Below are positions 2 through 3,553 of a stretch of DNA of 12,422 nucleotides, one piece after another. The translations under genes and the position numbers were made by a program. The stretch is from Coleofasciculus sp. B1-GNL1-01. Its GTDB lineage: Bacteria; Cyanobacteriota; Cyanobacteriia; Cyanobacteriales; Coleofasciculaceae. Below the pieces are notes generated by a model. It had not been told where the DNA came from. It worked only from the letters and a program-made list of their open reading frames with translations, and made no database searches. The DNA lies in NCBI GenBank assembly GCA_040220235.1, contig JAVJTO010000129.1, one strand, 5' to 3'. The first letter of the stretch is position 1; every line of letters begins with the position of its first letter.

Positions 2-421
2 CACGGTGCAACGGTAGAAAACACCTTGTTTGAAGACGGTGAAGGGTCAAACACCTTCCGGGCGTTTAACCCCACCCAAGCCGAAGAAACCTATTCGATG
101 GTGACGGCGAACCGCTTTTGGTCTCAGATTTTCGGGATTGCGTTTTCCAATAAGCGCTGGCTGCACTTCTTCATGCTGTTTGTCCCAGTGACGGGCTTGT
201 GGATGAGTTCAGTGGGTGTGATTGGCTTAGCGGTGAACCTGCGGGCGTATGACTTCGTGTCCCAGGAAATCCGGGCAGCAGAAGACCCCGAATTTGAGAC
301 ATTCTACACCAAGAACATTCTGCTCAACGAAGGAGTCCGAGCTTGGCTGGCGCCTCAAGACCAACCCCACCAGAAGTTTGAATTCCCTGAGGAAGTTCTA
401 CCTCGCGGTAACGCACTCTAA
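2..421 (+). CDS. psbD: Photosystem II D2 protein, 3' part (5'-truncated by window edge); stand-alone psbD2-type copy
   Basis: Frame is open from nt 2 ([13 protein letters not shown]...) and reads [21 protein letters not shown]...[12 protein letters not shown], the D2 C-terminus. It is followed by a terminator, not by an overlapping psbC. Confidence 0.99.
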
Positions 422-449: not shown

Positions 450-476
450 CCCCTGCCTTCGGGTAGGGGTTTTTTT
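450..476 (+). terminator. Intrinsic terminator of psbD
   Basis: Stem CCCCTGCC/GGTAGGGG (one G-U) closing a C(UUCG)G tetraloop, followed by T7. Confidence 0.9.
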
Positions 477-588
477 CTGTTCATCGTTGATGGTTGACAA
501 CTCAAAACTTGAATGGGGCGGGTTTAAATAGTCGGTCAAGAGAAAACGACACGCTCACGCTTGTTTTATAACCCAGACTCAAACCTAT

Positions 589-664: not shown

Positions 665-692
665 TTGCCAAATCTAAATGGTGTGTTATTCT
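665..692 (+). promoter_or_regulatory. Putative sigma70-type promoter for the 699-999 locus
   Basis: TTGCCA (665-670), 16-nt spacer, extended -10 TG-n-TATTCT (684-692). TSS predicted at about 698-700. Confidence 0.6.
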
Positions 693-763
693 AATTAAAG
701 GTGAATAAACACCAGATAACTAACGGATTAAAAAACCGTACAGGGATTAAGGAGGTGATGCCC

Positions 764-835
764 ATGAGCGATAGTAGTAAAAGCATGGGTCATCTGATTG
801 GAGTTAGCCGGCTGTGTGCCGGGGCTGTTCTCTAA
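764..835 (+). CDS. Putative 23-aa small peptide MSDSSKSMGHLIGVSRLCAGAVL
   Basis: ATG 764 lies 8 nt after the GGAGG core of AAGGAGGTGAT (749-759); TAA at 833-835. Too short for the ORF track. Translation is not proven. Confidence 0.5.
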   Translation: MSDSSKSMGHLIGVSRLCAGAVL

Positions 836-935
836 CAGTTGGCTCAGTTCTCTTCGGAGAACTCATAGATTGAGAAACTGGGCTGGTTAAGGAGTTCCTT
901 CCGGCAGTCTGGTTTCAATCAGAAGACCCGCTAGA

Positions 936-999
936 CCGCTCTCACTATAAGTACTAAAGATTTTATCTAGGTACTTCCCGTGAGAGCGGATAGTTTTTT
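936..999 (+). terminator. Long terminator-like hairpin upstream of the dehydratase gene
   Basis: CCGCTCTCAC/GTGAGAGCGG (10 bp perfect) + AAGTAC/GTACTT + AGAT/ATCT, then ATAG-T6. Confidence 0.7.
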
Positions 1000-1038: not shown

Positions 1039-1323
1039 ATGGCTGAGTTACTCAGTGACGCAGAAATTCAAGAAAAAGTCAAGTCATTAGAAGGCTGGAC
1101 GGTTGAAGGGAAAGAGTTACACACAACTCGCCAATTCAAAGATTTTGTCGAAGCGATCGCCTTTGTCAATAAGATTGTTGAACCAGCAGAAGCGGCTGGA
1201 CATCATCCTGATTTAGGGATTTCGTATAACAAGGTGACGATTAGTCTCACCACCCATGATGCTGGGGGTTTGACAGCGAATGACTTTGAGATGGCTCAAA
1301 CGCTGTCCAAGTTAAGCGCATAG
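1039..1323 (+). CDS. phhB: Pterin-4-alpha-carbinolamine dehydratase (PCD)
   Basis: 94 aa; catalytic motif EAAGHHPD, plus YNKV and LTTHDAGGLTANDF; GGGAG SD upstream. Confidence 0.95.
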   Translation: MAELLSDAEIQEKVKSLEGWTVEGKELHTTRQFKDFVEAIAFVNKIVEPAEAAGHHPDLGISYNKVTISLTTHDAGGLTANDFEMAQTLSKLSA

Positions 1324-1579: not shown

Positions 1580-3553
1580 ATGTCGAAATTACTGTGGAAG
1601 TCTCTACTTATTAGCCCAGCGGTATTAGGTGTAACCTTAGTTGCATCTACGGTGGGAGTACGTGCAGCCGATAGCGCCAATCTGCCTATCGCTGACACTC
1701 AAACAGCAACGCCAGAAGTTCAGTTCGATGGTGTTGCTGATATTACGGTTTCAGAGGAAATTGCGGTTAATCCGGAACAGTTAACTCCAGCCAGTCTAGA
1801 GGTGAAGCCAGAGGTACAACCGACCTTGGCTCAAACTGTACCTGCTGCGCCCAATGACGCTGAGATTTTAAATCAAATCAATGACTACAGCAACGAAGGA
1901 ACCTCTAGTGGACAAGTGACCAGTGTGGGTCAGTTACGCGATGTTTCTCCAGGAGACTGGGCGTATGAAGCGCTACGTAGCCTAGTCGAACGTTACGGCT
2001 GTATCGCTGGGTATCCGGATGGTACATATCGTGGCAATCGGGCGCTAACTCGTTACGAATTTGCTGCTGGTTTGAATGCTTGTTTGAATCAAATTGAGCG
2101 TTTAATCGGAACAGGCGGTTTTGATGAAACTGAGTTAGAAACCCTGCGGCGGTTGATTCAGGAATTTGAAGCGGAACTGGCGACGCTAGGGGCGCGAGTT
2201 GATAACCTAGAAGGTCGTGTGGCGTTCCTGGAAGATAATCAGTTCTCCACGACGACCAAGTTACGGGGTGAAGTCATCTTTGCGCTCACCGATACCTTCG
2301 GCGGCGAGGACAACTCTTTTGATATAGATGGTGTAGATTTGGCTGATCCCGAAGTTCAAGAATTTTTTGAAGAAATCTTGGGAACAGATGTAGAGTTTGA
2401 CGATGATACAAACACCATCTTTGGTCACAGGGTTCGTCTAGAACTCAATACTAGCTTCACTGGTCAAGATCGTTTAGTAACTCGTCTGGCGGCTGGCAAC
2501 CTGAATGCTTTTACGCCTAACAGTCCTAGTTTCAGTCTAGTCGATGAAGACCTTGATCTAGATGTGCCATTGGGTACATTGGGTACGGGCGAAGCCTTCC
2601 AAACGTTCAATATTGGAAACACTGATAACGATGTCATCATAGACTGGTTAGCTTATTACTTCCCCTTTGGCAGCTCAAAAGTTTATGTTGCTGCAACTGG
2701 AGGAATTCACAGCGACTACGCCCCTACACTCAATCCCTACTTTGAGGATTTTGACGGTGGTAATGGTGCCCTTTCTAGCTTTGCCTCGGAAAATCCCATT
2801 TATCGGATTGGTGGTGGTGCAGGCGCAGCACTTAGCCTTGGTGTCGGTCCTCTAGAAAGGGTTCTGGGTCCAAGTACATTGACTCTAGGTTACTTAGCTG
2901 GTCCAGGAGCAGAGAATCCAGGTGAGGATTTTGGCATATTCAACGGCGAATACGCAGCCCTCGCCCAGTTGAATTTCAATATTGGTGACCGAATTGGTAT
3001 CGGTGCTACCTACGTCCACGGTTACCACAATGCTGGCAGTGACATATTTGATATCGGTGGAGGGGATGGAGGTTCTGTTGTGGGAACCTATTTAGCCAAT
3101 AATCCCAGTGAAGTGGCTACCCTCCTTAATGCTGACCTGCCAGTGACTCCAACAGTAACTAATTCTTACGGCATCGAAGCGGCGTTCCGCCTGACGGAAA
3201 AAATATCCATTAGCGGCTATGGCACTTACACAGATGCAATCCTGATTGGTCAGGGTGGAGCTGAAATCTGGACTTACGGAGCTGGCGTAGCTTTCTCAGA
3301 CTTAGGTAAGGAAGGTAACATTTTGGGAATATTTGGAGGAGCACAACCTTATCTAGGAAATACTAATACTCCAGGTGAAGATTTCCAAATTGACGGTACT
3401 GATGATGTTCCGTGGCATATAGAGGCATTCTACAAGTATCAGCTCACGGATAATATCTCCGTTACTCCGGGTGTGATCTGGCTACTGAATCCTAACCAGG
3501 CTGATGCAGATGATGCTGTAGTCGGTACACTCAGAACTACTTTCACGTTCTAA
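1580..3553 (+). CDS. Cyanobacterial outer-membrane porin (SLH domain + OprB-type beta-barrel; Som/'iron uptake porin' family)
   Basis: Signal peptide; SLH motif DVSPGDWAYEALRSLVERYGCIAGYPDGTYRGNRALTRYEFAAGLNACL; coiled coil; FSTTTKLRGEV; C-terminal GTLRTTFTF. Confidence 0.96.
   Translation: MSKLLWKSLLISPAVLGVTLVASTVGVRAADSANLPIADTQTATPEVQFDGVADITVSEEIAVNPEQLTPASLEVKPEVQPTLAQTVPAAPNDAEILNQINDYSNEGTSSGQVTSVGQLRDVSPGDWAYEALRSLVERYGCIAGYPDGTYRGNRALTRYEFAAGLNACLNQIERLIGTGGFDETELETLRRLIQEFEAELATLGARVDNLEGRVAFLEDNQFSTTTKLRGEVIFALTDTFGGEDNSFDIDGVDLADPEVQEFFEEILGTDVEFDDDTNTIFGHRVRLELNTSFTGQDRLVTRLAAGNLNAFTPNSPSFSLVDEDLDLDVPLGTLGTGEAFQTFNIGNTDNDVIIDWLAYYFPFGSSKVYVAATGGIHSDYAPTLNPYFEDFDGGNGALSSFASENPIYRIGGGAGAALSLGVGPLERVLGPSTLTLGYLAGPGAENPGEDFGIFNGEYAALAQLNFNIGDRIGIGATYVHGYHNAGSDIFDIGGGDGGSVVGTYLANNPSEVATLLNADLPVTPTVTNSYGIEAAFRLTEKISISGYGTYTDAILIGQGGAEIWTYGAGVAFSDLGKEGNILGIFGGAQPYLGNTNTPGEDFQIDGTDDVPWHIEAFYKYQLTDNISVTPGVIWLLNPNQADADDAVVGTLRTTFTF

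Follow-up and report, generated by a model that had tools for sequence, protein, structure and literature searches.

Most of the short open reading frame of the cyanobacterial RNA ncl0160 lies in one strand of a covarying long-range helix

Background

In dual-function small RNAs, such as SgrS/SgrT, RNAIII/hld and SR1/SR1P, the open reading frame (ORF) occupies a part of the RNA mostly distinct from the regulatory domain, and the pairing targets are known. Leader-peptide transcription attenuators of the trpL and pyrL type have a short ORF behind a strong Shine-Dalgarno sequence (SD), followed by an intrinsic terminator and close downstream genes, all in one transcript. In type I toxin mRNAs, for example those of the hok, tisB and ibs type, a tiny ORF is found together with translation signals that can be occluded and a long-range pairing between the 5' and 3' parts of the mRNA. 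In cyanobacteria, ncl0160 is reportedly a small RNA of Synechocystis 6803, described by Mitschke and co-workers in 2011.

Of 89 cyanobacterial genomes, 83 have a homologue of ncl0160 according to Brenes-Alvarez et al. 2016 (PMC4734099). As far as the accessible text and supplement of that paper go, the RNA encodes a conserved small peptide of 23-25 aa with a ribosome-binding site always in front (the stops are 47 TAA, 34 TAG and 2 TGA), and the authors grade it as 'likely translated'. For the homologue in Nostoc 7120, Table S3 gives a transcription start at 5442335f, an end at 5442618, a length of 283 nt and a sequence beginning with AGGTGAAAA; the entry is annotated 'putative peptide', an annotation that came after an RNAcode run on the alignments of that study. 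Fig. S2 shows a predicted structure of ncl0160 with the SD boxed, and the oligonucleotide table includes a Northern probe for the Nostoc 7120 homologue. We were not able to find an assigned function for ncl0160 in the literature searched, where its name was found only in Brenes-Alvarez et al. 2016. The locus is not mentioned in the accessible parts of PMC2662882, PMC12873609 and PMC5126843, nor in the accessible main text of a Synechocystis Ribo-seq preprint (10.64898/2025.12.20.695498).

Here we analyse a stretch of 12,422 nucleotides from Coleofasciculus sp. B1-GNL1-01 (the window), in which an earlier note, made from the sequence alone, had flagged a tiny ORF behind a strong SD. The ncl0160 family is defined by a core sequence, an SD with an ORF of 23-25 codons and about 283 nt up to a Rho-independent terminator, and the element in the window differs from it in nothing essential; its own start and terminator are predicted at ~699-999, from a conserved extended -10 and a covarying terminator. 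The element is also like the dual-function RNAs, in that a small structured RNA bears a short translatable ORF as well (cf. the accessible part of PMC12612679). Unlike in those RNAs, most of the ncl0160 ORF is at the same time one strand of a conserved helix.

Results and discussion

Identity and distribution of the element

The flagged site is a rediscovery, since the homologues described as ncl0160 by Brenes-Alvarez et al. (PMC4734099) make it part of a cyanobacterial small RNA family that is already published. The 16-mer GGAGGTGATGCCCATG of the window is present in 73 rows of the accessible Fig. S1 alignment of that paper and also lies inside the Nostoc 7120 sequence of its Table S3. Compared by eye, the accessible rows consist of the same blocks as our own alignment (A2), and the architecture of the Nostoc 7120 entry, as tabulated, is that of the window element. 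It is thus almost certain that ~699-999 is the ncl0160 orthologue of this genome and that the long-range helix described below is its conserved fold. A riboswitch, tmRNA, 6S RNA, RNase P RNA, SRP RNA or other curated Rfam family was considered and rejected, as no covariance model matched: at the gathering score there were no Rfam matches in the whole window, a permissive threshold gave only chance-level matches in 430-1060 (E >= 1.2), and ARAGORN found neither tRNA nor tmRNA in the window.

When 660-1040 was the BLAST query, 53 of 61 related genomes had a match, and 22 of the 24 other families of the order were represented among them. With 750-999 as the query, matches were found in 138 of 401 genomes from the whole phylum; these come from almost all families of the order and, beyond it, from several orders of the class. 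No match was found by BLAST in 29 genomes of a family with small genomes (f38), nor by a motif search with up to three mismatches in 121 genomes of the same family; in a further set of 12 families, 2 of 225 genomes matched. Of the 53 matching relatives, 50 had a single match each; the second matches in the others were the other half of the element or weak matches of 20-32 nt. In summary, we collected 76 distinct loci (L numbers below), many of them from two families. The loci are phylogenetically clustered, and the covariation and ORF counts given below are simple counts over them, which therefore overstate the independent support. Among the divergent homologues, L064, L065 and L080 (family f39) and L067 come from lineages that are blank in the ncl0160 row of Table S3 of PMC4734099, as far as that table is accessible.

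Transcription unit and neighbourhood

All features described here are on the plus strand. The upstream neighbour (2..421) is the 3' end of a stand-alone gene that we read as psbD (D2), because its Pfam match is Photo_RC (E 7e-15); a reading as psbC was set aside on account of the same match. An intrinsic terminator of psbD was found at 450..477 by the terminator scan, and in relatives an equivalent G+C hairpin with a T-run lies upstream of the promoter. The sole promoter-like site that the promoter scan found in 400-1100 is TTGCCA-16 nt-TATTCT at 665..692, with an upstream TG that makes an extended -10 (684-692). A TGTGyTATCTT-like extended -10 is kept in most of the 22 upstream regions that were aligned. 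Because of this conservation, we place the start of the RNA near A699 (AGGTGAA...), in agreement with the start of the Nostoc 7120 transcript as tabulated in PMC4734099. An ACCGTwyAGGGA box was considered as the -10 and rejected; the conserved extended -10, 60 nt further upstream, fits the Nostoc start. The box itself, just upstream of the SD (741-763), is kept even in distant homologues. In the fold of the window, GGGAUUA pairs with UGAU-GCCC and shows AGGAGG in a 6-nt loop, a pairing that is lost in several relatives.

From its predicted start, the RNA would have a 5' UTR of 64 nt (699..763) with hairpins at 700-713 and 723-739, then the SD (749-759), the ORF (764..835) and a sequence-variable apical domain (838..888). 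The latter consists, according to RNAalifold, of a stem (838-848/876-887) and a hairpin GUUCUC-UUCG-GAGAAC (847-862), with compensatory changes at alignment columns 89-99/136-147 and 100-104/113-117. The intrinsic terminator (930..999) has an invariant stem base, GCUAGACCGC / GCGGAUAGU, and a U-tract at 994-999; over 54 sequences, its helix (helix 6) shows double changes in 6 of 14 pairs, while 7 pairs are invariant. Judged by its sequence, the Coleofasciculus element is an independently transcribed, terminator-ended RNA of ~300 nt with a predicted start and end. The long structured 3' UTR that the earlier note had described was borne out by folding 699-1005, which gave -111.5 kcal/mol (z = -5.08), with 0 of 100 shuffles as good.

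Contigs from RNA libraries, 95-99% identical to the window, cover 661-1247, 754-1247 and 737-1010; their strand and ends cannot be read, and they may stem from DNA. The last of them, a 274-nt contig from one run, has the extent of the element and is possibly a graph artefact. The ~180 nt between the psbD terminator and the ncl0160 promoter (480-660) are missing from most aligned relatives. Within them lie four tandem 7-nt units, GAATGAC / AAATGAC / GAATGAC / GAAAAAC (621-648). Metatranscriptome contigs have loose ends and variants exactly in 480-660, especially in 621-648.

Downstream of the element we find a gene for pterin-4a-carbinolamine dehydratase (PCD; 1039..1323, Pfam Pterin_4a, E 1e-32) and a gene for a porin with SLH and OprB domains (1580..3553, Pfam SLH and OprB). 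This neighbourhood is widely kept: on the same strand as the element, psbD is upstream in 54 of the 76 loci, PCD is downstream in 50 and the SLH-OprB porin in 57, and at least one of the two downstream genes is present in 65, including loci that lack psbD (L061, L074-L076). In the window, the gap between the U-tract and the PCD start codon is only 40 nt. Between the element and the start of the PCD match lie 35-64 nt in 21 of the 30 loci L001-L030, hardly enough to hold a promoter; another family has spacings of 142-685 nt. The promoter scan gave no promoter-like site in 693-1100, and expression of the PCD gene may require transcription through the ncl0160 terminator. We also compared the RNA with the PCD start, the porin start and the psbD 3' end using RNAduplex, and saw no pairing beyond the shuffles, of which 24, 159 and 109 out of 200, respectively, were as good.

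Several observations on the surroundings are given for completeness. In the window and in many relatives (L003, L010, L011, L014, L016, L018-L024, L027, L029, L030 and others) the contig starts inside psbD, 200-700 nt upstream of the element. These starts fit assembly breaks at a second, near-identical psbD; the gene here has no psbC after it. Two genes unrelated to the element are a TnpB/Cas12f-like gene (OrfB_IS605 and TNB domains) at L067:1780-3015 and a ParE-family toxin gene at L060:1002-1292.

The Shine-Dalgarno sequence and the short ORF

The claim that the SD is a perfect 11-nt complement of the 16S rRNA 3' tail proved correct, the complement being AAGGAGGTGAT at 749-759. The sequence GGCUGGAUCACCUCCUU, which we take to be the 16S rRNA 3' end motif, was not found in this assembly; it was found in all four relatives searched, and in the one relative that was run through Rfam it forms the 3' end of the SSU rRNA match, so the complementarity holds. 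Within a single genome the SD is unexceptional: GGAGGTGAT, with at most one mismatch, occurs 3 times in the window (2.4 expected), and AGGAGGTGAT has 32 copies in the 8.66-Mb genome vs 19 for the reversed control. The SD is significant because it is conserved, with GGAGG followed 8-10 nt later by ATG in 76 of 76 homologous loci.

The tiny ORF is likewise as described, running from ATG 764 to TAA 835 and giving MSDSSKSMGHLIGVSRLCAGAVL. All 76 loci have the GGAGG, the ATG and an open frame, and none of them has a frameshift, a lost AUG or a lost SD, which the earlier note had named as findings that would speak against its reading. It had named variable stops as well, and these do occur: the ORF is 23 aa long in 67 loci, one codon longer in 4 and only 17 aa long in 5, with a stop at codon 18. 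The variable stops weaken the case for a role of the C-terminal residues. Within the ORF all length changes are multiples of three (L057, L072, L074/L075), whereas indels of other sizes are common downstream of it (A2).

The five variants with 17 codons (L005, L064, L065, L080 and L066) all stop at codon 18. Four of them read on after this stop through an 'AG.VL'-like or 'GRVVL' sequence; L064, L066 and L005 then stop again at the usual place, and L065 continues further. Since the sequence is conserved after these stops, the apparent conservation of the C-terminus is at least partly a matter of the RNA. The codon-18 stops, TGA or TAG, represent at least four separate cases, and the codon elsewhere is Cys, Arg or Ser. 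In two of the variants TGA stands for a Cys codon. The local-hairpin alternative to the long-range fold would place codon 18 in a hairpin loop.

We were not able to find the excess of variation at third positions that is typical of protein genes: the mean column entropy for codon positions 1/2/3 is 0.37/0.47/0.47. Only codons 3-4 (D/E, S), with a variable position 3, look coding-like. They are part of a conserved N-terminal M-x-[D/E]-S-S-K, a motif that is absent, as we read it, from the Gloeobacter row of the accessible alignment in PMC4734099. Residues 10-14 are free to vary, and the 3' strand of the helix changes along with them in a compensatory way. An exact look-up in a collection of 15 billion proteins found 1 of 10 peptides, without a name. 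From these sequences, selection looks to act on the RNA fold and on a translatable ORF (start, frame and approximate end) more than on the peptide sequence, because the third-position excess is missing and conservation extends past the premature stops. A functional peptide is still to be reckoned with, since codons 3-4 are coding-like and PMC4734099 carries the putative-peptide annotation. The ncl0160 ORF may be translated conditionally.

A conserved long-range helix and a local hairpin predicted to be transient

The structure was modelled with RNAalifold on 25 sequences, and pairs were counted on 54 sequences (A2). In this model, ORF codons 8-24 (787-833) pair with the 3' domain (891-929). 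The helix P1 joins 787-802 with 914-929 (UUCAAUCAGAAGACCC), P2 joins 807-813 with 906-913 (AGUCUGGU), P3 joins 818-824 with 899-905 (UUCCGGC) and P4 joins 830-833 with 891-894 (GGAG). Together they form a composite helix of ~33 bp, capped by the variable apical domain and with the terminator behind it. The 3' strand of P3 reads UUCCGGC here and UCCCGGC in most relatives. The 3' domain also carries an anti-SD-like CCUCC/CCUUCC that could pair with GGAGG and is part of P3 in the covarying fold.

Over the 54 sequences, the conserved structure is 97.8% paired, and 18 of its 47 pairs, or 137 cells, are changed on both sides. None of 500 shuffles reached any of the five measures of conserved structure, and slid controls were 28-51% paired. 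The compensatory changes are visible, for example, in L061, L071, L076, L079 and L062. In the ensemble of the full-length RNA, 11 of the 15 P1 pairs have p >= 0.95, and when 24 diverse homologues were folded at full length, the P1 core had p >= 0.94 in 17. The predicted probability that the SD is unpaired ranged from 0.00 to 0.99 among the full-length homologues. Covariation and thermodynamics thus point to a long-range helix, and in it the SD and AUG stay largely unpaired.

According to the earlier note, the SD is locked in a hairpin with its own coding sequence. The complementarity is there, as AGGTGA/CCCATG (753-758/761-766) can pair with CATGGG/TCATCT (784-789/790-795), giving a local hairpin at 753..795 (753-758/790-795 and 761-766/784-789) that is predicted as a transient structure of the nascent RNA. 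In isolation it folds with -13.1 kcal/mol (z = -1.92; 8 of 200 shuffles as good), and it is the minimum free energy structure of transcripts that end at 800 and 830, being predicted only below ~830. A 5' hairpin of -8 to -20 kcal/mol was predicted for the nascent 5' part of all 24 homologues. As a conserved fold, on the other hand, the locking hairpin does not stand, because covariation and thermodynamics both favour the long-range helix on the same strand. Its probability in the full-length ensemble is 0.00, the 3' strand pairing with 914-929 instead. None of its 12 pairs is changed on both sides among the 54 sequences, and the pair A753-U795 is broken in 27 of them. Tested together with two local hairpins it is 92.2% paired, and its covariation score, which 244 of 500 shuffles attain, is at the level of shuffles. 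Where the shared strand 784-795 has changed, the compensating change is in the 3' domain, not on the SD side. To judge from these models, the local hairpin can only be, at most, a transient co-transcriptional state. We also note that L067 keeps the ORF and is without the 5' strand of the local hairpin (GGAGGTTCCTGCGGATG).

A proposed mechanism and its alternatives

We propose that ncl0160 is a translation-gated structured RNA, in which a nascent 5' hairpin gives way to an exposed SD and AUG, helix and translation exclude each other, and fold and frame are selected over the peptide; in our judgement, this proposal has roughly an even chance of being right. It builds on the identity of the RNA, its conservation, the covariation and the retention of the ORF, all of which are observed. 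During synthesis, the AUG and part of the SD would be held in the local 5' hairpin. Once 914-929 is transcribed, the long-range helix would capture the strand of the hairpin, and the SD and AUG would become accessible. An initiating ribosome would then have to unzip the whole composite helix, which would make the folded and the translated state mutually exclusive. The result would be a dual-feature RNA with an activity or stability that depends on the passage of ribosomes. That translation occurs, that folding follows this order and that ribosome passage is the functional switch is what we infer here.

One could go further and see a 'translation sensor' that is common to the phylum, with an ORF that exists in order for ribosomes to unzip the ~33-bp helix and a peptide sequence that is largely irrelevant. 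We put this forward tentatively and consider it rather improbable. The co-transcriptional hairpin would keep ribosomes off until the fold is complete, and the passage of ribosomes, and so the translational capacity of the cell, would toggle the RNA between a closed and an open state. Such a toggle could free the invariant 3' strand for another interaction, or it could set the read-through into the PCD and outer-membrane porin genes beside psbD.

Potentially, the locus could be a microprotein gene, with a peptide of 17-24 aa as the effector and a long-range structure that stabilises the mRNA or tunes its translation; we regard this as possible and, on balance, somewhat unlikely. Such a gene would keep its ORF, SD and start, as is the case in 76 of 76 loci, it would change length only in frame, and the conserved N-terminal motif with the variable third position of codon 3 would fit it too. 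It would be harder to reconcile with the missing overall third-position excess, with residues 10-14 that are free to track compensatory changes of the 3' strand, and with conservation that continues past the codon-18 stop in 5 of the 76 loci. The Gloeobacter row without the N-terminal motif (as read here from the accessible alignment of PMC4734099) and the single unnamed hit among ten peptide look-ups also argue against it, and an mRNA stabiliser would not need a 3' domain and a terminator base anywhere near as invariant as these. Alternatively, the RNA would go untranslated and serve as a ribosome-associated or decoy RNA, binding 30S subunits by its anti-SD complement of 9-11 nt and the AUG, with an incidental ORF. 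Here the absence of codon periodicity is expected, GGAGGTGAT is invariant or nearly so, and the helix begins 23 nt downstream of the first AUG nucleotide, about where the footprint of an initiating ribosome would end. For an incidental frame, one would not expect every indel to be in frame, nor the stop to remain at codon 18 or 24-25, and we find this docking very unlikely.

The layout that the element has in common with attenuators (a short ORF with a strong SD and then an intrinsic terminator in one transcript, with close downstream genes) suggests a cis-acting leader, attenuator or riboswitch-like, that controls terminator read-through into PCD and porin, so that the '283-nt sRNA' would be the terminated leader. 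Consistent with it are the PCD and/or porin genes that 65 of 76 loci have downstream in the same orientation, also where psbD is missing, the 35-64 nt to the PCD match in most of L001-L030, the scan of 693-1100 without a promoter-like site, and the RNA-library contigs that bridge 661-1247 and 754-1247, which may be DNA and are no proof of a single transcript. On the other hand, 11 of the 76 loci have neither gene downstream, and the longer spacing in another family does not suit a leader. Unlike attenuators, the element has no antiterminator supported by covariation, and two conserved Ser codons are all that resembles a run of regulatory codons; its ORF ends ~95 nt before the terminator, and the terminated RNA is a discrete, conserved product. 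The candidate antiterminator GGCAGUCUGG (903-912) with CUAGACCGC (931-939) is uncompensated in A2 as judged by eye, with changes of U/C at 908, U/A at 910 and G/C at 934 that have no partner changes. We therefore hold a cis-acting leader to be unlikely. In the nascent folds at 940 and 950, the terminator arm (GCUA/CGCU) pairs with the 5' tail (UAGU, to which this genus alone adds AGCG); as an antiterminator this pairing was rejected, with only 4 bp conserved. No antiterminator candidate besides these two was found.

The earlier note had also suggested a type I toxin-antitoxin module. What the element shares with type I toxin mRNAs is its arrangement, in which a strong, occludable SD precedes a tiny ORF, the 3' region is structured and the 5' and 3' parts of the RNA pair. 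The suggestion fails on peptide chemistry, copy number and distribution, and we consider it extremely improbable. Unlike in those toxins, the peptide is not hydrophobic: its N-half is polar, and its longest uncharged apolar run, LCAGAVL, has ~7 residues, not enough to cross a membrane. The element is single-copy rather than multi-copy (one match in 50 of the 53 matching relatives), and it is syntenic and vertically conserved across a bacterial class, not patchy. An antisense partner is not in evidence either, as the promoter scan found no promoter-like site on the minus strand in 400-1100.

Conclusions

The 'locked SD' and the toxin readings should be dropped. Compared with PMC4734099, what is new here is the quantified covariation of the helix between the ORF and the 3' domain and its competition with the 5' hairpin, the 17-codon variants, the conserved psbD / PCD / porin neighbourhood, and the homologues in lineages (f39, L067) that were scored negative by the BLAST criterion of that study. 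The added structural reading is a modest advance on a known family.

With its distribution, ncl0160 is among the most widely conserved cyanobacterial small transcripts. According to the accessible part of a 2024 review, no conserved cyanobacterial protein is shorter than PetN (29 aa); if the ncl0160 ORF is translated, its product would be shorter still. Since the ORF is also a strand of a covarying helix, the locus offers a clean natural test of translation vs peptide vs fold, and with psbD and a major porin gene as stable neighbours it has concrete phenotypes that can be tested.
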